Part shown: positions 508 through 25,078 of the stretch, in pieces
Layout of the letters: every line of letters begins with the position of its first letter
Position numbering within the stretch: position 1 is the stretch's first letter
Assembly: GCF_003790525.1 (NCBI RefSeq)
Contig: NZ_CP033635.1
Source: Escherichia coli
GTDB lineage: Bacteria; Pseudomonadota; Gammaproteobacteria; Enterobacterales; Enterobacteriaceae
DNA length: 64,000 nucleotides
Strand: one strand, 5' to 3'
Position numbers and translations under genes: made by a program
The notes under the pieces: generated by a model
Seen by the model: the letters and a program-made list of their open reading frames with translations, nothing else
Database searches by the model: none
What the model was told of the DNA's origin: nothing

Positions 508-2485
508 GATGGTTTATCCGTAAGATCAACGGTGCGCAGGAAGAAATCCAGCGTTTCGTCGATGGTTTCCTGCATATCAATTTTCGGTTCCCAGTCCAGG
601 CAGCGGCGGGCATTGCGGATGCTCGGTTTACGATGCTCTACGTCCTGATATCCTTTGCCGTAGTAGCTGCTACTTTCGACAACACGAAAGCCCGCAAACG
701 GTGGGAAGTAATGGCGCAGCGGATGTTTTTCGAAGCTCGCCAGCAGCATCTCCCCCAGTTCTTCAATGCTCGCTTCGTTCTCAGGATTGCCAATGTTGAT
801 AATTTCGCCATCGCAGCGATTTCCCGCATTTTCGATAATGCGGTATAACGCCTCGATACCATCCCGAATATCAGTAAAGCAGCGTTTTTGTTTTCCGCCA
901 TCAATCAGCTTAATCGGTGAACCTTCTACCAGATTGAGAATGAGTTGCGTAATAGCGCGGGAGCTGCCAATTCGCGCTGCATTAAGGTTATCCAGTCGTG
1001 GCCCCATCCAGTTAAACGGGCGGAAGAGGGTGAACTGTAAACCTTCTTTTTCGCCATAGGCCCAGATCACTCGATCAAGTAATTGTTTAGACACCGAATA
1101 AATCCAGCGTGGTTTATTCACCGGGCCGACGATTAAATTAGAATGGTCCTCATCGAAGTATTTATCGCTACACATCCCATAAACTTCTGAAGTCGACGGG
1201 AAGATGATTCGCTTACGGTACTTCACGCAGTAGCGGATAATGCGCAGATTCTCTTCGAAATCGAGTTCAAATACGCGCAGCGGGTTGCGGGTATATTCAA
1301 TCGGCGTGGCTATCGCCACCAAAGGCAAGACGACATCACATTTTTTGACGTGATACTCAATCCATTCGGAATGAATACTGATATCGCCTTCGACAAAGTG
1401 AAAATGCGGATGATTCAGAAAACGGCTTATCGCATCGCTGCCAATATCCAGACCGTAAACTTCATAATGATCTTCGCGCAGCAGGCGTTCTGTCAGATGG
1501 TTGCCAATAAAGCCATTCACCCCGAGGATGAGTACCCGGGTACGGCGTCGGGCGGCACAGGCAGGCTGGCTATTCAAGCGTGAACCTTGCACCAGGCCCA
1601 GCGTCTGCGCTAATTGCGAGCCCTGCATAGTAATGCCGCCGCCCGCCTGTCCAGTGACGATTTCCAGCGCGCCATCGCCACAGGCAATCAGCAGTGGCGC
1701 AACAGAAATCACGCTCCCCGGTTGTGCTGCGGGCGCATGAGAATGTACGCGTGACGACCAGACGGTAAATTTTTGATTACCAACATAGCTGAAGGCACCC
1801 GGCCACGGATCGGCGACTGCACGCACCATGTTATGCAATACTGCTGCCGATTTGTGCCACTCGAGGAAGCTGTCTTCTGGCGTTCTGCGACCAAAACAGG
1901 TGGCTTCGTTTTCGCACTGGGCGATTTCCAGAATATTACCGTCTTTAATGGCGGGTAATGTCTGCTCCAGTAGCTGTCGCGCGGCATGGCATAACTTATG
2001 ATGCAGCGTAATGGCGATATCGTCTGGCGCAATGGCAATGCGCAGTTGGGCTACAATGGCCCCAGCATCGGCACGTTTCACCATTCGGTGCAATGTCACG
2101 CCAGTTTCCGTTTCACCGTTCACCAGCACCCAGTTCAGCGGCGCGCGACCACGATATTTTGGTAACAGTGAACCATGCAGATTAAATGCGCCTGCAGGAG
2201 CGAGCTGCAAAATCTTGTCGTGAATAAGATGGCGATAATAAAAAGAGAAAATCACATCTGGTGATAGTTGGGCAATGCGTTCCACCCACAGCGGATGGTT
2301 AACGTCATCCGGCGCATAAACCGGAATGCCTCTTTCCGCTGCCAGACGAGCCACCGAACCATAAAAGGCTTTTTCACCGGGATTATCAGTATGGGTAAAA
2401 ATGGCGCTAATTTCGTAACCGGCAGCCAGCAGGGCTTCAATACCGAGGCATCCCATATCGTGGTAGGCAAAAACGACGGTTTTCA

Positions 2486-2486
<1 letters not shown>
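504..2486 (-). CDS. arnA: ArnA, bifunctional UDP-glucuronate decarboxylase / UDP-Ara4N formyltransferase
   Basis: 660-aa ORF with N-terminal formyltransferase domain and C-terminal NAD-dependent dehydrogenase/decarboxylase domain; length matches ArnA. Confidence 0.95.
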
Positions 2487-3457
<971 letters not shown>

Positions 3458-4630
3458 TTATTGTCCTGCGAGTTGCTGAAGGGCTGTGATGACGCGGTCG
3501 GCATCGGCGGTAGTCATATCCGGGAACAGCGGCAACGAACAGATGCGTTCGCTATTCCATTCGGTATTCGGTAACGACAGCGTGGGAAAACGCTCGCGAT
3601 AATATTTTTGTGTGTGAGCGGCGCGGAAATGTAACCCGGTACCAATACCTCTTTCTTTTAACGCTTCCATCAACGCATCGCGACTGATACCACAACGTTG
3701 TTCATCGACACGAATAATAAACAGATGCCAGGCGTGAACGTGCGGCCAGGCGGGAAGGCTTAATGGCTGAAAGGGGAGAGCTGCCAGTGCTTGCTGATAT
3801 TGCTGGGCAATTTCGCGCCGACGGGTGTTGAGGTGCTCTAATTTTGCTAACTGTGTCAGGGCAATCGCGGCGTTAATATCGGTCAGATTGTACTTATAGC
3901 CCGGTGTTAAGACTTCAGCTTGCGGTGCACGGCCCCAGGTTTGTCTGTCATAGGCATCGACACCCAGACCGTGAAATTTCAGCATCCGTAGCTGGCGGGC
4001 AAGGTTTTCATTATCAGTTACAATCAGGCCACCTTCAGCACAGGTAATATTTTTAATGGCATGAAATGAAAAAATAGCGGTACCTTTTGCGCCAATATGT
4101 CGCCCTTTGTAATACGTACCGACGGCATGGGCAGCATCTTCGATAACTGCGATGCCGTAACGTTCGCCAATGGCGCGAATGGCGTCAATATCTGCTGGCG
4201 CACCGGCATAATGCACCGGAATGATGGCTTTAGTGCGTGGCGTAATGGCTGACTCGATCGCTTCAGGCGTGACCATCAGCGTATCGCGGTCGACATCCAC
4301 CATTACCGGCGTTGCACCCAACAAGGAGATCATATTGAGGGTTGAAACCCAGGTCAGGGAAGGCGTAATCACTTCATCGCCCTTGCCTATTTCCAACGCC
4401 ATTAGCGTGATATGCATTCCGGCGGTGGCTGAACTGACCGCGATGGCATGCTGATTTCCCGTCAACTGGCAAAAGGCTTGTTCAAGCGCCTGATTCTTCG
4501 GACCGGTTGTGATCCAACCGGATTCGAGAACCTCTTTAACTGCAGCGAGTTCCTCCACGCCCATTGCTGGTCGCGAAAAAGGCAAAAATTCTGACATTGC
4601 TTTTCCTTCCGCCATTGAATACCTGTCCAC
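3458..4630 (-). CDS. arnB: ArnB, UDP-4-amino-4-deoxy-L-arabinose--oxoglutarate aminotransferase (PLP-dependent, DegT family)
   Basis: 390-aa ORF of the DegT/ArnB aminotransferase family. The true start may be an internal Met (M6 or M12 of the ORF), giving about 385 or 379 aa. Confidence 0.9.
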
Positions 4631-18208: not shown

Positions 18209-19567
18209 ATGTTGAGTATTTTTAAACCAGCGCCACACAAAGCGCGCTTACCTGCTGCGGAGATCGATCCGACTTATCGTCGATTGCGCTGGCAAATTTT
18301 CCTGGGGATATTCTTTGGCTATGCTGCTTACTATTTGGTTCGTAAGAACTTTGCGCTCGCTATGCCTTATCTGGTTGAGCAGGGATTCTCACGCGGTGAT
18401 TTAGGTTTTGCCCTTTCGGGGATCTCGATTGCTTATGGATTTTCGAAATTCATCATGGGTTCGGTATCGGATCGCTCGAATCCGCGCGTTTTCCTGCCCG
18501 CAGGTTTGATTCTGGCGGCGGCAGTGATGTTGTTTATGGGCTTTGTGCCGTGGGCGACGTCGAGCATTGCGGTGATGTTTGTACTGTTGTTCCTCTGCGG
18601 TTGGTTCCAGGGGATGGGATGGCCGCCGTGCGGTCGTACTATGGTGCACTGGTGGTCGCAGAAAGAACGTGGCGGCATTGTGTCAGTGTGGAACTGTGCG
18701 CACAACGTCGGTGGTGGTATTCCGCCGCTGCTGTTCCTGCTGGGGATGGCCTGGTTCAATGACTGGCACGCGGCGCTCTATATGCCCGCTTTCTGCGCCA
18801 TTCTGGTGGCACTGTTCGCCTTTGCGATGATGCGCGATACCCCGCAATCCTGTGGCCTGCCGCCGATCGAAGAGTACAAAAATGATTATCCGGACGACTA
18901 TAACGAAAAAGCGGAACAGGAGCTGACGGCGAAGCAAATCTTCATGCAGTACGTGCTGCCGAACAAACTGCTGTGGTACATCGCTATCGCCAACGTGTTC
19001 GTTTATCTGCTGCGTTACGGCATCCTCGACTGGTCACCGACTTATCTGAAAGAGGTGAAACACTTCGCGCTGGATAAATCCTCCTGGGCCTACTTCTTCT
19101 ATGAGTATGCGGGCATTCCGGGCACCCTGCTGTGCGGCTGGATGTCGGATAAAGTCTTCCGTGGCAACCGTGGGGCCACCGGTGTCTTCTTTATGACACT
19201 GGTGACCATCGCGACTATCGTTTACTGGATGAACCCGGCAGGTAACCCAACCGTCGATATGATTTGTATGATTGTTATCGGCTTCCTGATCTATGGCCCT
19301 GTGATGCTGATCGGTCTACATGCGCTGGAACTGGCACCGAAAAAAGCGGCAGGTACGGCAGCGGGTTTTACCGGGCTGTTTGGTTACCTCGGCGGTTCGG
19401 TGGCGGCGAGCGCGATTGTTGGCTACACCGTGGACTTCTTCGGCTGGGATGGCGGCTTTATGGTAATGATTGGCGGCAGCATTCTGGCGGTTATCTTATT
19501 GATTGTTGTGATGATTGGCGAAAAACGTCGCCATCAGGAATTACTGCAAAAACGCAACGGAGGCTAA
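18209..19567 (+). CDS. glpT: GlpT, glycerol-3-phosphate:phosphate antiporter (MFS)
   Basis: 452-aa ORF, full-length match to GlpT ([31 protein letters not shown]…). Confidence 0.95.
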
Positions 19568-19571
19568 TGGC

Positions 19572-20648
19572 ATGAAATTGACGCTGAAAAACCTTAGCAT
19601 GGCGATCATGATGAGTGGAATGATCATGGGAAGCAGTGCAATGGCGGCGGACAGCAACGAAAAAATAGTCATCGCCCATCGCGGTGCCAGTGGATATTTG
19701 CCGGAGCATACGCTGCCAGCAAAAGCGATGGCGTATGCGCAGGGAGCGGATTATCTGGAACAGGATTTGGTGATGACCAAAGACGACCATCTGGTTGTTC
19801 TGCATGACCATTATCTCGATCGTGTTACTGATGTTGCCGATCGTTTCCCGGATCGGGCGCGCAAAGACGGTCGTTACTACGCGATAGATTTCACGCTCGA
19901 TGAAATTAAGTCACTGAAATTTACCGAAGGTTTCGATATTGAAAACGGTAAGAAAGTACAGACTTATCCGGGGCGTTTCCCAATGGGTAAGTCCGACTTC
20001 CGGGTGCACACCTTTGAAGAAGAGATTGAATTTGTTCAGGGGTTAAATCACTCTACCGGGAAAAATATTGGTATCTACCCGGAGATTAAAGCGCCGTGGT
20101 TCCATCATCAGGAAGGGAAGGATATTGCGGCAAAAACGCTGGAAGTGCTGAAGAAATATGGTTACACCGGTAAGGACGACAAAGTTTATTTGCAATGTTT
20201 TGATGCCGATGAACTGAAGCGTATTAAGAATGAGCTGGAACCTAAAATGGGCATGGACCTCAATCTGGTACAGCTGATTGCCTATACCGACTGGAACGAA
20301 ACTCAGCAGAAACAGCCGGACGGAAGCTGGGTTAATTACAACTACGACTGGATGTTTAAGCCGGGGGCCATGAAACAGGTGGCGGAATATGCTGATGGTA
20401 TTGGTCCGGATTACCATATGTTGATTGAGGAGACATCGCAGCCAGGTAATATCAAACTCACTGGCATGGTGCAAGATGCTCAGCAGAATAAACTGGTAGT
20501 GCATCCTTACACCGTGCGGTCAGATAAGCTGCCTGAATACACTACTGATGTGAATCAGTTATATGATGCTCTGTATAACAAAGCGGGTGTAAATGGGCTG
20601 TTTACTGATTTCCCTGATAAGGCAGTAAAATTCCTTAATAAAGAGTAA
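19572..20648 (+). CDS. glpQ: GlpQ, periplasmic glycerophosphodiester phosphodiesterase
   Basis: ORF 19515-20648 with start trimmed to MKLTLKNLSMAIMMSG (signal peptide), about 358 aa; the upstream extension overlaps the glpT 3-prime end. Confidence 0.9.
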   Translation: MKLTLKNLSMAIMMSGMIMGSSAMAADSNEKIVIAHRGASGYLPEHTLPAKAMAYAQGADYLEQDLVMTKDDHLVVLHDHYLDRVTDVADRFPDRARKDGRYYAIDFTLDEIKSLKFTEGFDIENGKKVQTYPGRFPMGKSDFRVHTFEEEIEFVQGLNHSTGKNIGIYPEIKAPWFHHQEGKDIAAKTLEVLKKYGYTGKDDKVYLQCFDADELKRIKNELEPKMGMDLNLVQLIAYTDWNETQQKQPDGSWVNYNYDWMFKPGAMKQVAEYADGIGPDYHMLIEETSQPGNIKLTGMVQDAQQNKLVVHPYTVRSDKLPEYTTDVNQLYDALYNKAGVNGLFTDFPDKAVKFLNKE

Positions 20649-20656
20649 TGCTACTG

Positions 20657-20682
20657 CAGGATGGCGTTCATGCGCCATCCTG
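20657..20682. terminator. Hairpin after glpQ, overlapping the 3-prime end of the convergent LysR gene
   Basis: caggatggcgc-ttcat-gcgccatcctg, 11-bp perfect stem. Confidence 0.55.
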
Positions 20683-21567
20683 TCTCATATCAAATTTTCC
20701 ACTCTCCACTAATTGTTCTGTGCACATTTGTAGTAAAAACAGTGGACTGCCTTCTACCGGCTTTTCTTTAGCCAGCAACGAAATCTGTCGATAGAAGGTT
20801 GGTTCGAGAGGAACGGAACACAATTCATCTGCAATGGTTTTCAGCGTTAACTCTGGTAATAAGGCGATGCCTAATCCCTGTCGAATAAAACTGATCGCTG
20901 TATCCGGGTGATTAAATTCATATTTTATCTGTGGGGTAATATTCTTTTCTTTAAATAGTGCCATAATGCTTAATTCATAGCGTCCTTTACTAATAATTAA
21001 TGGTTCACCCATTAACTCTTCCACTGTAATAGTGCTGTTTTTTGCCAGAGCATGGTTGGGCGGTAACACTACGGTGAATTTATCCTGATAAATGGGCACG
21101 GAGTACATTCCGCTCACCGGAAAATGAACAAAACCGGCATCAATGGATTCATTCTGAAGGGAATCAATAATCGCTGTGCTATTTTCCTCAAAAGGAATAA
21201 TTTTTATATTCGGATGATGAATTTCAAAGTAGCGAATCACAGCCGGTAAGATACAGGCACAGACGCTGGGGAAACAACCAAGTCTCAGCGTTCTTTGAGG
21301 GTTCTGCTTTTCCTGCTCGGCTATCTCTTTTACTGCGTTCACTTCCCGATTAATGGCGCGCAGATGATGCATAATGCGGTGACCTGCAGAGGTCAGTTGT
21401 ATAGCTTTACGGCGATCGCGTAACAGTATATTCACGCCAAGTTCTTGTTCGAGGGCAGCAATTGCCTGACTTACCGCCGACTGCGTCATGAACAATCGCT
21501 TGCTGGCTTCAGTAAAGCCACCGTAATCCAGCACGGCGAGTAAAGAATTTATTTGGGTAAGAGTCAT
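20668..21567 (-). CDS. yfaH: LysR-family transcriptional regulator (full-length counterpart of yfaH)
   Basis: 299-aa ORF with N-terminal LysR HTH (…FTEASKRLFMTQSAVSQAIAALEQELG…) and substrate-binding domain. Intact here; I recall yfaH as a truncated pseudogene in K-12. Confidence 0.8.
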   Translation of the reverse strand: MTLTQINSLLAVLDYGGFTEASKRLFMTQSAVSQAIAALEQELGVNILLRDRRKAIQLTSAGHRIMHHLRAINREVNAVKEIAEQEKQNPQRTLRLGCFPSVCACILPAVIRYFEIHHPNIKIIPFEENSTAIIDSLQNESIDAGFVHFPVSGMYSVPIYQDKFTVVLPPNHALAKNSTITVEELMGEPLIISKGRYELSIMALFKEKNITPQIKYEFNHPDTAISFIRQGLGIALLPELTLKTIADELCSVPLEPTFYRQISLLAKEKPVEGSPLFLLQMCTEQLVESGKFDMRQDGA

Positions 21568-21718
21568 TAGAGTTTGCTAATCAATAATATTAAAACGATT
21601 AATTTCTCTAATAGCATGCCGCCATTTATACTTCTGTTCTGCAAAGTACATCACAATTTGACGTAACCGCAGTAACGGGAGTGTTGTCTGCGTGCGTCAT
21701 CCTGACAGGCGGTAGGGT

Positions 21719-22909
21719 ATGAAAGAGAAGTTATGGACGAAGGATTTTTGGGCAATAACCATCATCAGTTTTATTATTTTCTTCGTCTTTTATGTTTTAC
21801 TAACATTGTTGCCAATTTATATCTCAGACCGCTTGCATGCCTCTCCTGATAAAGCAGGTTTGTTGGTGACTTTATTTTTAATTGCCGCCATTGTTATTCG
21901 CCCCTTTGCCGGGCAATGGGTGGGTAAATATTCGAATAAAACTATTCTGGGGCTCTCTTCTCTGGCCTTCTTGGTGGTCACTGCGCTGTATCCTTTTTGC
22001 CACTCAATTGAATCACTGCTTTTTATTCGGGTGCTTCATGGTATTACCTTCGGGGTTATCACTACGGTAAAAGGAACGATTTCCGCGCGGCTGATCCCGG
22101 CCTCCCGACGTGGGGAGGGCATCAGTTTTTTCTCTCTGGCAATGGGGCTGGCAATGGTGGTCGGGCCGTGGATTGGCCTGAATATGGCGCGCTGGGAGGC
22201 CTTTAATATGGCTTTCTGGTTATGCACCGGCGTGGCAGCGGTGGGGATTATTCTGTCGCTGATTATGACAGTGCCGCCGGTTATCAGCCATGCTGATGGT
22301 TCAACGCCGAAAATGGGCTTCGCCGCCATGTTCGATCGCGCGGCGTTGCCATTTGCGATGGTCACCTTTTTTATGACCTTTTCGTATGCCGGGGTTTCTG
22401 CTTTTCTGGCGCTTTATGCACGCGAACTTAACCTGATGTCGGCAGCCAGTAATTTCCTGCTTTGCTACGCTATCTTCCTGATGATCTGCCGTACCTTTAC
22501 CGGCAATGTCTGCGACAAAAAAGGACCGAAATATGTGGTTTACCCTTGCCTTGTGTTCTTTACGGTTGGACTGGTGGTTCTCGGCTACACCCAGGGAAGC
22601 ATAATGATGGTTGTTTCTGGCGCGTTGATTGGTATCGGGTATGGTTCCGTGACGCCAGTTTTTCAGACGCAGATTATCAGTTCAGTGGAACCGCATAAAA
22701 TCGGTGTCGCAAACTCCCTCTTCTTCAATGCGATGGATGCAGGCCTGGCGCTGGGAGCCTGTGTGATGGGGATGATGGTTGCACATACTGGCTACCGAAT
22801 GATTTATCTGCTGGGTGCACTATTAGTGGTAGTGGCTGGTGGAGTCTATGAGCTGCAAATGAAGGGCAAAAGCGGTGTCATGCTAGTAGCGGCAAAAGAA
22901 ATTCATTAA
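21719..22909 (+). CDS. MFS transporter (12-TM, efflux-type), divergent from the LysR regulator
   Basis: 396-aa ORF, hydrophobic throughout with MFS loop motifs; not an ORF I associate with K-12 at this position. Confidence 0.75.
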   Translation: MKEKLWTKDFWAITIISFIIFFVFYVLLTLLPIYISDRLHASPDKAGLLVTLFLIAAIVIRPFAGQWVGKYSNKTILGLSSLAFLVVTALYPFCHSIESLLFIRVLHGITFGVITTVKGTISARLIPASRRGEGISFFSLAMGLAMVVGPWIGLNMARWEAFNMAFWLCTGVAAVGIILSLIMTVPPVISHADGSTPKMGFAAMFDRAALPFAMVTFFMTFSYAGVSAFLALYARELNLMSAASNFLLCYAIFLMICRTFTGNVCDKKGPKYVVYPCLVFFTVGLVVLGYTQGSIMMVVSGALIGIGYGSVTPVFQTQIISSVEPHKIGVANSLFFNAMDAGLALGACVMGMMVAHTGYRMIYLLGALLVVVAGGVYELQMKGKSGVMLVAAKEIH

Positions 22910-22989
22910 TACGACACGTTTCATTAAGATTTTTCGCAGGTAACCACCTATAGTCATTGTCGTAAATAAAAAATGACAGGCGATAGGGT

Positions 22990-23640
22990 ATGGCAGTTTC
23001 AGCAAAGCACGACGAATTTAATCACTGGTGGGCAACAGAGGGCGACTGGGTTGAAGAGCCTAACTATCGCCGTAATGGTATGAGCGGGGTGCAATGCGTC
23101 GAGCGCAACGGCAAAAAGCTATATGTAAAGCGCATGACGCATCATCTGTTTCATTCCGTACGTTATCCGTTCGGTCGACCAACGATTGTCCGTGAGGTTG
23201 CGGTAATTAAAGAACTGGAACGGGCTGGTGTCATCGTGCCGAAGATCGTTTTTGGTGAAGCGGTGAAAATTGAGGGGGAATGGCGCGCGTTGCTGGTGAC
23301 TGAAGATATGGCGGGGTTCATCAGCATTGCTGACTGGTATGCCCGGCATGCAGTATCGCCTTATTCTGACGAAGTACGGCAAGCCATGTTGAAAGCAGTG
23401 GCGCTGGCGTTTAAGAAAATGCATAGCGTTAATCGTCAGCATGGCTGTTGTTATGTTCGCCATATCTATGTGAAAACAGAAGGTAAGGCAGAAGCTGGAT
23501 TTCTTGACCTGGAGAAAAGTCGTCGCCGCTTGCGTCGTGATAAAGCGATTAATCATGACTTCCGCCAGCTGGAAAAATATCTGGAGCCGATCCCTAAAGC
23601 GGACTGGGAGCAGGTGAAAGCGTATTACTACGCCATGTAA
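22990..23640 (+). CDS. inaA: InaA, pH-inducible protein of the lipopolysaccharide-kinase (Kdo/WaaP) family
   Basis: 216-aa ORF; sequence and position between glpQ and nrdB match InaA. Confidence 0.85.
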   Translation: MAVSAKHDEFNHWWATEGDWVEEPNYRRNGMSGVQCVERNGKKLYVKRMTHHLFHSVRYPFGRPTIVREVAVIKELERAGVIVPKIVFGEAVKIEGEWRALLVTEDMAGFISIADWYARHAVSPYSDEVRQAMLKAVALAFKKMHSVNRQHGCCYVRHIYVKTEGKAEAGFLDLEKSRRRLRRDKAINHDFRQLEKYLEPIPKADWEQVKAYYYAM

Positions 23641-23693
23641 TCGTTGTAGGCCAGATAATACGCGTAAGCGTCGTATCTGGCGCTAGTACCCGA

Positions 23694-23948
23694 TCACAAC
23701 TCGATTTCAATATCGCCTTTTGCCCGGCAACAACAGGGCAAAATTTCCCCCGGCTGAATAAAGGCTAACGGTTCGGCAATCCAGTCCACCTGGCCTGCAA
23801 CAAGGCGTGTGCGACAGGAACCGCAGTAACCTTCGCGGCACTGATACTCAACCGCCACATTGTGGGATTCCAGCGCCGCCAGAAGGGAAAGGTGTTCATC
23901 CTGGCACAGCAGCTGTGTGCCAGTGATGCGCAGGGTAACGCGGGCCAT
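23694..23948 (-). CDS. yfaE: YfaE, 2Fe-2S ferredoxin involved in NrdB diferric-tyrosyl radical maintenance
   Basis: 84-aa ORF with Cys-rich ferredoxin motifs (CREGYCGSC…CCC) immediately downstream of nrdB. Confidence 0.9.
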   Translation of the reverse strand: MARVTLRITGTQLLCQDEHLSLLAALESHNVAVEYQCREGYCGSCRTRLVAGQVDWIAEPLAFIQPGEILPCCCRAKGDIEIEL

Positions 23949-25078
23949 CAGAGCTGGAAGTTACTCAAATCGTCGGTGTCCACTTCCGCGTCAATCTGCC
24001 CGACCAGATAAGAACTCACTTCCACTTCCTGCGGAGCAACCTGTACGTTATCAGACACCAACCAAGTGTTGATCCACGGGATCGGGTTGGAGCGCGTCTG
24101 GAACGGCAGATCCAAACCGACTGCCTGCATACGGATATTGGTGATGTATTCAACGTACTGGCAGAGGATGTCTTTATTCAGACCAATCATCGAACCATCA
24201 CGGAACAGATAATCCGCCCAGTCTTTCTCTTGCTGTGCCGCCTGGACAAACAGGTCATAGCACTCCTGCTTACATTCTTCGGCAATTTCCGCCATCTCCG
24301 GATCATCCGCGCCGCTGCGCAGCAGATTCAGCATATGCTGGGTGCCGGTCAGGTGCAGGGCTTCGTCGCGGGCAATCAGGCGAATAATTTTGGCGTTACC
24401 TTCCATCAGTTCGCGTTCTGCAAAGGCAAAGGAACAAGCAAAGCTGACGTAGAAGCGGATCGCTTCCAGCGCGTTAACGCTCATCAGGCAGAGATACAGT
24501 TTTTTCTTCAGCTCGCGCAGGCTAACGGTTACGGTTTTACCGTTAACGGTGTGGGTACCTTCGCCCAGCAGATGCCAGTAGCTGGTCATTTCGATCAGTT
24601 CATCGTAATAGCTGGAGATCCCTTCCGCACGTTTCTGGATCTGCTCGTTGGTGACGATATCGTCAAAGACAACTGACGGATCGTTAACGATATTACGGAT
24701 GATATGGGTATAGGAGCGGGAATGAATCGTTTCTGAGAACGCCCAGGTTTCTACCCAGGTTTCCAGTTCCGGGATCGAGATCAGCGGCAGCAGTGCCACG
24801 TTCGGGCTGCGACCCTGAATGGAGTCCAGCAGCGTCTGATATTTCAGGTTGCTGATAAAGATGTGTTTTTCGTGTTCAGGTAGTGCCTGGTAATCGATAC
24901 GGTCACGAGAAACGTCAACTTCTTCCGGACGCCAGAAGAAAGAGAGCTGCTTTTCGATCAGCTTTTCGAAGATGTCATATTTTTGCTGATCGTAGCGAGC
25001 CACGTTAACCGGCTGACCAAAGAACATCGGTTCTTTCAGCTGATCATTTTTCGTCTGTGAAAAGGTGGTATATGCCAT
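23948..25078 (-). CDS. nrdB: NrdB, class Ia ribonucleotide reductase beta subunit
   Basis: ORF 23948-25129 with start trimmed to [17 protein letters not shown], about 376 aa. Confidence 0.95.

Follow-up and report, generated by a model that had tools for sequence, protein, structure and literature searches.

An apparently old LysR regulator and MFS transporter pair between glpQ and inaA in Escherichia coli, kept in K-12 as the yfaH stump

The window, a stretch of 64,000 nucleotides from Escherichia coli, carries a gene for a LysR-type transcriptional regulator (20668–21567, minus strand, 299 aa) and a gene for an MFS transporter (21719–22909, plus strand, 396 aa). Both start with ATG, and according to the list of open reading frames they lie divergently across 151 bp (21568–21718), between glpQ and inaA. 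The Pfam matches, HTH_1 and LysR_substrate for the regulator and MFS_1 for the transporter, score far beyond chance, and together with the reading frames they confirm the two genes, their strands and sizes and the divergent gap that an earlier note on this DNA had described. On one side the pair is flanked by glpA, glpT and glpQ, the last ending at 20648, and on the other by inaA (22990–23640), followed by yfaE, nrdB and nrdA. A hairpin with a 12-bp stem is found 3' of glpQ (20656–20683, plus strand; fold −22.5 kcal/mol, z = −5.4) and is likely the glpQ terminator. The final codons of lysR, which is frameshifted in the window, extend into this hairpin, and the junction between hairpin and lysR is identical in arrangement in E. 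albertii. An Rfam scan of 19500–24000 gave sub-threshold chance matches only. The pair as such is already known: over 1,200 complete genomes have it annotated, the regulator of O157 has been studied, and the remnant in K-12 is a catalogued pseudogene. In E. coli strain 165 a 100% identical pair is labelled 'LysR family transcriptional regulator' and 'MFS transporter'.

The regulator has an N-terminal winged helix-turn-helix (HTH_1, PF00126, E=1.2e-17, residues 3–63) and a LysR_substrate domain (PF03466, E=1.5e-36, residues 88–267), and it shares its domain organisation, size and divergent arrangement with the classical LysR-type transcriptional regulators (LTTRs). None of the NCBIfam equivalog models reaches its cut-off for this protein, the best being GltC with 129 as compared to 350 bits. 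The N-terminus of the regulator, MTLTQI..., and that of the transporter, MKEKLWTKDFW..., are kept in the orthologues from seven other taxa, which shows that the start codons are right. The C-terminal end of the regulator is different: the orthologues have 292 aa, and the ancestral protein was not 299 aa long. One base has been lost from a T-run at 20695–20698, with four T in the window as compared to five in O157, and because of this loss the tail ...GKI* is replaced by ...GKFDMRQDGA*. The window thus carries a class I lysR allele with a 1-bp frameshift in its 3' end. There is also a class II allele, sharply bounded, with 76% nucleotide identity to class I against a background of 99–100%, which shows that recombination acts on the locus; between the two classes the regulator allele is swapped wholesale and the transporter is not. 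The dN/dS values are low, 0.04–0.17 for lysR and 0.05–0.09 for the MFS gene, showing that both genes are under purifying selection.

The transporter matches MFS_1 over residues 14–340 (E=6.3e-45), and its 12 hydrophobic segments correspond to 12 predicted helices, arranged as 6+6 around a central loop at 183–205. Motif A (GxxxD[RK]xGx[RK]) is found as GNVCDKKGPK at 262–271, in the loop between helices 8 and 9, the copy in loop 2–3 being degenerate, and motif B (LxxxRxx[QH]G) as LLFIRVLHG at 100–108 in helix 4. Helix 5 contains GLAMVVGPWIG (143–153), which has the GP core but falls short of the full motif C consensus (G-x8-G-x3-GP-x2-GG). With A, B and C-like motifs of the kind seen in drug:H+ antiporters, a proton-coupled exporter appears to be the most likely assignment, and we lean towards export as the direction in which the protein works. 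Direction and substrate are read here from motifs and weak similarity. The 12-helix format of roughly 390–400 aa is common to the YhhS/YfcJ-like transporters, and the CDD model 'MFS_YfcJ' has been cited for the protein (PMC10819331). The YhhS and YfcJ models (PRK05122 and PRK12382) nevertheless miss their cut-offs widely, with 110.1 vs 374 and 85.3 vs 364 bits, and BLASTP against K-12 YfcJ gave 25% identity over 119 residues (E=4e-4). The protein belongs to a distinct and tightly conserved subfamily, with 79–97% amino acid identity across eight taxa and six invariant cysteines. Because of the link to YfcJ and the many cysteines, a copper importer of the CcoA/CalT type was also considered. The CalT (CcoA-like) importers are marked by two motifs, MxxxM (helix 7) and HxxxM (helix 8) (PMC10588857); inspection of the translation showed that the sole MxxxM (142–146) lies in helix 5 and that HxxxM is absent, and this candidate was rejected.

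The same locus is found in O157:H7 EDL933 as O-island 97, where Z3494 (MFS) and Z3495 (LysR) are orthologous to the genes in the window, also between glpQ and inaA, and about 98% identical to them in amino acid sequence for either protein. The published z3494/z3495 primers (Table S3) can be placed on the O157 copy, and for three of them the window also has an exact match. Both copies share the divergent layout and the sequence between the genes, but genomes of the O157 type have an extra AT-rich segment of 1.7 kb between glpQ and lysR, with a 356-aa orphan ORF, and a regulator of 292 aa, whereas the window has the insertion-free layout common to E. albertii and a regulator of 299 aa. The insertion sits at the 3' edge of the glpQ hairpin (about 20678–20681), and its 356-aa ORF gave no match to NCBIfam, PADLOC or Pfam. 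Z3495 was described by Wang et al. 2024 as a regulator of virulence genes in O157:H7 (PMC10819331). In EDL933, loss of z3495 is reported to reduce LEE transcripts as well as adherence and colonisation of mice; the protein shifts the rcsF promoter in EMSA and is reported to raise LEE expression through rcsF, and ChIP-seq gave 97 loci, with low enrichments (log2 1.2–1.8) that fall largely on highly expressed genes (PMC10819331). A z3494 deletion was without phenotype in the adherence and colonisation assays that had revealed one for z3495 (PMC10819331), which leaves room for the two genes to act in separate pathways.

According to the earlier note, K-12 has only a truncated yfaH remnant at this place, and this is borne out. 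In K-12 a C-terminal fragment of the regulator (yfaH) is fused to a C-terminal fragment of the transporter, around a deletion of 1,879 bp between two TTTATCTG repeats, located by BLAST breakpoints and the junction sequence; in the window the left copy of this microhomology is at 20924–20931 and the right copy at 22803–22810. The remnant shares about 96% DNA identity with the window, but the N-terminal three quarters of the regulator are missing, together with the promoter region and the larger part of the transporter, and K-12 hence carries the remnant only, not two intact genes. The 68-aa YfaH family (NCBIfam NF007272 / PRK09729) corresponds to the C-terminal stump of the regulator, as seen from its match to residues 226–291 of the window protein, scoring 140.8 bits where the cut-off is 139. 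A literature search on yfaH found nothing relevant.

The states of the locus were counted in 5,426 complete E. coli genomes by megablast coverage thresholds, and the counts are accordingly approximate. The core of the module is kept in about 1,220 genomes (22%; 1,216–1,232), in agreement with the variable loss among strains that had been proposed. The window-type junction is present in 507 genomes, about 101 of them with diverged alleles, so that the layout of this window is found in roughly 400, and the O157-type junction is present in 711. The K-12 deletion junction is present in 3,113 of the 5,426, and an empty locus of the B2 type is seen in 1,058 genomes, among them CFT073, Nissle and ST131. 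The 102 bp that replace the module in CFT073 were searched, and they hold no remnant of it. The module is dispensable in many niches, as E. coli has lost it by deletion on at least two occasions, in the K-12 and the B2 types.

An alignment of the intergenic region from eight taxa, E. coli to Leminorella, was used as a footprint. A search for the T-N11-A box of LysR regulators in 21568–21718, which the earlier note had suggested, did find such boxes, conserved across the eight taxa. A dyad, ATTAG-N6-CTAAT, at 21566–21581 overlaps the start codon of lysR and is a candidate recognition site (RBS); it is the sole match in the 64 kb, with 0.05 expected, and its arms hardly differ between the taxa, unlike the variable 6-bp spacer. 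Two overlapping T-N11-A dyads at 21589–21612, ATTAAAACGATTAAT at 21589–21603 and ATTAATTTCTCTAAT at 21598–21612, are candidate activation sites (ABS' and ABS''). Two of the three matches to ATTA-N7-TAAT in the window fall inside this segment, and GATTAATTT..CTAAT keeps every base throughout, E. coli to Leminorella, the O145 allele (CTTAT) being the exception at a single position. A candidate −10 hexamer for the transporter gene, TATACT, is located at 21627–21632 on the plus strand, and the T, the A and the last T of it do not vary among the eight taxa (TATACT, TATAAT, TATTAT or TAGAAT). Placing the start site 7 nt downstream of this hexamer, near 21639, the dyads would be centred at about −65, −43 and −34, with the T-N11-A dyads overlapping the −35 position of the putative promoter. 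In the classical LTTR architecture (CynR, GltC, BenM and CysB types) the RBS is found near −65 and the ABS near −35, with T-N11-A spacing. The dyads here have corresponding positions and spacing, but the one at −65 is 16 bp as compared to the usual 15 bp. A strict scan for sigma-70 consensus promoters and terminators gave no intergenic promoter and missed the candidate −10 as well, so the promoter proposal rests on the comparative footprint. An invariant ATCACA block at 21650–21655 in the same alignment would belong to the 5' UTR of the transporter gene or to the promoter region of lysR. It was examined by eye as a CRP site (TGTGA on the other strand) and rejected, the second half-site not being conserved.

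The conserved dyads and their spacing to the −10 suggest that the regulator controls the transporter, and we hold it to be probable that the transporter is its cognate target. In the mechanism proposed here, a LysR tetramer would bind the ATTAG-N6-CTAAT dyad at about −65 and, in addition, one of the two overlapping dyads at about −43 and −34. As the candidate sites lie in the start codon and leader of lysR, the bound regulator would repress this gene, and once a small-molecule co-inducer is bound, it would switch on the gene for the transporter. The transporter in turn would most likely export a small metabolite or a toxic compound in a proton-coupled manner. Taken together, the window contains an intact, old Enterobacterales LysR/MFS pair that equals O-island 97 and has its stump in yfaH of K-12, and we regard this reading as a whole, with the regulator and a putative exporter working by such a mechanism, as likely.

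The conservation of the pair outside E. coli bears directly on its origin. Divergent orthologous pairs are found at the same position, with the glp genes on one side and yfaE-nrdBA on the other, in E. albertii, Salmonella, Citrobacter, Klebsiella and Kluyvera; these five taxa uphold the claim that the window has the intact ancestral module. In Leminorella the two genes are kept together in another neighbourhood (MFS 79% and LysR 61% identical). From this distribution the pair appears to be an old, chromosomally inherited module of the Enterobacterales, ancestral in E. coli. In Salmonella the pair presumably carries the tags STM2280/STM2281, for which a literature search found nothing. A lateral origin has instead been proposed for O-island 97, two clades being read as independent acquisitions (PMC10819331), and the pair would then be an islet that had reached certain pathogenic lineages of E. 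coli in separate events. The patchy distribution, in about 22% of the genomes, is in line with such an entry, as are the sharply bounded second allele class of lysR and the AT-richer composition of this gene, 43% GC and a GC3 of 41% vs about 50% in the surroundings. The MFS gene and nrdB have about 49–51% GC, and the MFS gene is not deviant. Against lateral entry, position and orientation are the same in the five taxa above, the window-type layout is without integrase, IS element, tRNA or flanking repeat, and 5,703 of 5,704 matches are chromosomal. Furthermore, the K-12-type genomes keep both gene ends around the microhomology deletion, which implies that absence is the result of loss and not of non-acquisition, and we regard an acquired islet as very unlikely. 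The 'O-island' would thus be ancestral core content that was deleted by K-12 and B2 strains and not a lateral acquisition. It is equally improbable that the window copy is decaying toward a pseudogene, with the regulator inactivated by the 3' frameshift. Such decay could be read from the 1-bp deletion itself and from the repeated loss or truncation of the locus in E. coli, where LysR clusters of 184–266 aa also exist, but the change affects one terminal residue (I to F) and adds eight, outside both Pfam domains, which are intact; at least 12 contigs share the 299-aa form, and the neighbouring MFS gene is full length.

The published work on O157 also allows a different function, in which the regulator is mainly a global or virulence regulator, acting through rcsF and the Rcs system on LEE, and the transporter is an unrelated passenger and not a target. 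The deletion phenotypes of z3495, the rcsF shift and the ChIP-seq loci, along with the lack of effect of the z3494 deletion, speak for such a role (PMC10819331). However, the pair is kept as a unit in genera that lack LEE, including Kluyvera and Leminorella, and the best-conserved non-coding elements are the LysR-type dyads in front of the transporter gene. The rcsF fragment used in EMSA, searched here in its K-12 and not its O157 sequence, contains neither dyad when one mismatch or fewer is allowed, and the ChIP enrichments are low and favour highly expressed genes, which makes a passenger transporter improbable. An uptake unit, with the transporter importing a nutrient that the regulator senses, is rather unlikely in our judgement. 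The best characterised relatives of the regulator among the NCBIfam models, GltC, CidR, AlsR, CynR and HcaR, are metabolic regulators, symporters are numerous among the MFS families, and there are weak matches to aromatic-acid and sialate symporter models, all of which would suit import. On the other hand, no gene for a catabolic enzyme lies beside the pair in the seven contexts examined, helix 5 has the motif C-like GP sequence, NorA and SotB, both efflux pumps, are the closest solved structures, and the best-scoring named NCBIfam models are of the exporter type (YhhS/YfcJ-like and CntE).

The conserved operator architecture gives a concrete prediction of the primary target of the regulator, outside the published ChIP and EMSA work. 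K-12, as a natural double null, is a handy strain for substrate tests of the transporter by add-back. A combination of the two functions can also be imagined, and we put it forward only tentatively: the transporter may be an ancient, constrained Enterobacterales exporter of an endogenous metabolite, the regulator may moonlight on rcsF and LEE, and the losses and allele swaps may reflect niche-specific selection. What has been called a laterally acquired virulence regulator would in that case be a regulator of the core genome, lost by commensal and laboratory lineages. An endogenous metabolite as substrate fits with the 79% identity of the transporter between Escherichia and Leminorella, with its invariant cysteines and with a dN/dS of about 0.06, and the niche-specific selection draws on the loss in 78% of the E. 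coli genomes and on the swap between the class I and class II regulators.

The regulator gene (20668-21567, minus strand, a 299 aa ORF) and the MFS transporter gene (21719-22909, plus strand, a 396 aa ORF) were found in the ORF list with the positions, strands and sizes of the earlier note, and 151 bp separate their start codons. The glpA, glpT and glpQ genes flank the lysR side, glpQ ending at 20648, and beyond the MFS gene follow inaA (22990-23640), yfaE, nrdB and nrdA. Pfam recognises HTH_1 (E=1.2e-17) and LysR_substrate (E=1.5e-36) in the regulator and MFS_1 (E=6.3e-45) in the transporter. The window is E. coli DNA; the stretch matches the chromosome of strain 165, a human abdominal isolate, at 100% identity, and the genes are annotated there as 'LysR family transcriptional regulator' and 'MFS transporter'. 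The low dN/dS values of the transporter (0.05-0.09) and the regulator (0.04-0.17) show purifying selection on both genes. The pair is an ordinary LysR-MFS unit, annotated before and characterised in part.

Orthologues of both genes form the same divergent pair in Salmonella enterica, Citrobacter, the Klebsiella oxytoca group and Kluyvera, flanked by the glp genes on one side and by yfaE-nrdBA on the other; their amino acid identity to the window proteins is 84-86% for the transporter and 67-80% for the regulator. E. albertii also has the pair, and its glpQ-hairpin-lysR junction is that of the window, without the 1.7-kb segment of O157-type strains, which makes the layout of the window the ancestral one in Escherichia and the segment an insertion. 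In Leminorella the two genes are together near dsbB and fadR (transporter 79% and regulator 61% identical), and this pairing in another neighbourhood argues for a functional coupling over mere synteny. The observation in the earlier note is confirmed, and its interpretation as an 'ancestral intact module, variably lost' is supported by the syntenic pairs in other genera, the several locus states in E. coli and the purifying selection.

The pair can be identified as z3494 (MFS gene) and z3495 (lysR) of O-island 97, since all 9 primers of a study of this island map exactly to the O157:H7 locus, three of them also being exact in the window: the z3495 start primer (21544-21567), the upstream homology arm (21566-21605) and the OI-97 check primer (22937-22960). 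The authors termed the regulator 'laterally acquired' and inferred independent acquisitions (PMC10819331), a reading that is contradicted by the synteny in other genera and by the evidence for deletion. A K-12 record has no more than two pseudogene fragments in the glpQ-inaA interval, the C-terminal part of LysR (yfaH) and that of the MFS transporter. Neither gene is whole there, so the truncated yfaH remnant mentioned in the earlier note does exist. The NCBIfam YfaH model (68 aa) hits the window regulator at residues 226-291, barely over the cut-off. As the BLAST breakpoints and the sequence of the junction show, 1,879 bp of the module are missing from K-12, lost in a microhomology deletion between two copies of TTTATCTG, at 20924-20931 and 22803-22810.

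Among 5,426 complete E. coli genomes, queries that span the junctions placed about 5,390 in a locus state. The module core is present in 1,216-1,232 genomes, for instance strain 165, O157:H7 and O145. The window-like glpQ-hairpin-lysR junction, as in strain 165, was found in 507 genomes, but this number includes about 101 with a diverged allele, so that the window's own layout is left with about 400 (7%). The O157-type layout, with the additional 1.7-kb segment between glpQ and lysR, was found in 711 genomes (e.g. O157:H7), the K-12 deletion junction in 3,113 (e.g. MC4100 and C43(DE3)), and 1,058, among them CFT073, Nissle 1917 and ST131, are fully empty, glpQ and inaA being separated there by 102 unrelated bp. 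All match places except one (5,703 of 5,704) are chromosomal. Shortened LysR forms of 184-266 aa, one of them in Shigella sonnei, show additional decay of the locus.

The O157-type segment (1786-3494 of the O157:H7 locus, 33.6% GC) is inserted at about 20678-20681 of the window, where it separates the lysR stop codon from the hairpin that probably terminates glpQ. It encodes a 356-aa orphan ORF, rich in K, N, S and I, with no match in Pfam, NCBIfam or PADLOC. Of the E. coli genomes, about 1,050 carry the segment, some with an IS1 inside it, and about 335 of these have the K-12-type deletion too; E. albertii and the other genera lack it. It was also possible to observe two deeply diverged E. 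coli alleles of a block at 20599-21877, which holds the glpQ 3' end, lysR, the intergenic region and ~160 bp at the start of the MFS gene. Class I (GC 43%) is carried by the window, O157 and the K-12 remnant, and class II (GC 48.6%) by O145 and about 100 genomes. The classes are about 76% identical in nucleotides and 84% in amino acids, with dS > 2, while the flanks of the block are 99-100% identical between O157 and O145. The E. albertii regulator is closer to class I (90% amino acid identity) than to class II (83%), which would fit class II being imported from another lineage or being an old polymorphism.

The orthologous regulators are 292 aa long, as compared to 299 aa in the window. One base is missing from the T-run at 20695-20698, and as a result the protein ends in ...GKFDMRQDGA and not in ...GKI, reading into the probable glpQ terminator hairpin (20656-20683; fold -22.5 kcal/mol, z = -5.4). 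The description of the module as intact thus holds for both Pfam domains, which are unaffected, but not for the frameshifted 3' end of lysR. The 299-aa form was also found on other contigs, and is probably functional.

Aligned over eight taxa, the control region has a column identity that averages 55%, yet it contains tight invariant islands. The dyad CATTAG-N6-CTAAT (21566-21581), with nearly invariant arms and a free spacer, overlaps the lysR start codon and is the sole such match in 64 kb, with 0.05 expected. The T-N11-A box that the earlier note proposed to look for is present as two overlapping, conserved ATTA-N7-TAAT dyads in ATTAAAAyGATTAATTTnnCTAAT (21589-21612), which account for two of the three hits of this pattern in the whole window. 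At 21627-21632, a TAnnnT hexamer (TATACT, TATAAT, TATTAT or TAGAAT, depending on the taxon) is a candidate -10. If it serves the transporter, the start site would be near 21639 and the three dyad centres near -65, -43 and -34. With the start site placed from conservation in this way, the arrangement matches the textbook one of LysR family reviews, a recognition site around -65 and activation sites overlapping -35. Autorepression would be expected, since the dyads extend over the lysR start codon and probably over the leader as well. A strict sigma-70 scan of the intergenic region found no promoter; activator-dependent promoters usually escape such scans. The invariant block ATCACA (21650-21655) is followed by a conserved TTGACG/ATCACG/ATGATG element, the two spanning 21650-21663; in each of the eight taxa they lie downstream of the proposed MFS start. 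The LysR-box model does not account for this stretch, which could belong to the lysR promoter, act as a second operator or be a leader element.

The ribosome-binding region and ATG of the MFS gene and of inaA form a 19-nt direct repeat, TGACAGGCG[G/A]TAGGGTATG (21703-21721 and 22974-22992; 18/19 identical, 6e-4 expected by chance in 2.4 kb). The inaA copy is present in every E. coli locus state, and the MFS copy is limited to class I alleles and E. albertii. Recombination across the repeat would excise the MFS gene exactly and leave inaA behind the LysR-controlled promoter; no genome with such an excision was seen.

The hydropathy scan gave twelve hydrophobic segments (6+6) in the transporter, which has a motif A (GNVCDKKGPK, 262-271), a motif B (LLFIRVLHG, 100-108) and, in helix 5, a motif C-like GP sequence. 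Among solved structures, the efflux pumps NorA and SotB are closest to it. The best named models, YhhS/YfcJ-like and the metallophore exporter CntE, are all well under cut-off, and K-12 YfcJ is 25% identical across 119 residues only, which makes it a distinct subfamily, very tightly conserved and with six invariant cysteines. From these features the transporter is somewhat likely to be a proton-coupled exporter. A CalT-type copper importer was rejected, as the CalT motifs are absent. The closest characterised relatives of the regulator, GltC, CidR, AlsR, CynR and HcaR, sense small carboxylates or related metabolites, which by analogy is at most a hint of the substrate.

Deletion of z3495 is reported to lower LEE transcript, HeLa adherence and mouse colonisation, deletion of z3494 had no effect in these assays, and MBP-Z3495 shifts the rcsF promoter (PMC10819331). 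In the ChIP data the enrichment is small (log2 1.2-1.8) and mostly over highly expressed genes, and the peaks in Supplementary Table S4 include ompA at 1,019,229 and glpA at 2,352,683 (PMC10819331). The rcsF EMSA fragment, in its K-12 sequence, has neither conserved dyad at ≤1 mismatch, and this, together with the small enrichments over highly expressed genes, calls for caution with the reported regulon. Judging by MG1655 coordinates and the K-12 position of glpQ, the peak coordinates are presumably those of K-12, not EDL933; had the reads been mapped to K-12, no score would be possible for the locus of the regulator itself, which K-12 lacks.

Between inaA and yfaE there is an naRNA4 Rfam match (23649-23724, minus strand) of 28.9 bits, below the gathering score of 59.5; the element is probably a REP-like palindrome. 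Between the MFS gene and yfaE, inaA is absent in Salmonella, Citrobacter, Klebsiella and Kluyvera, and reduced to its last ~140 bp (equivalent to window 23500-23640) in the E. albertii genome compared. The presence of inaA at this position is therefore an Escherichia feature, partly deleted in E. albertii.
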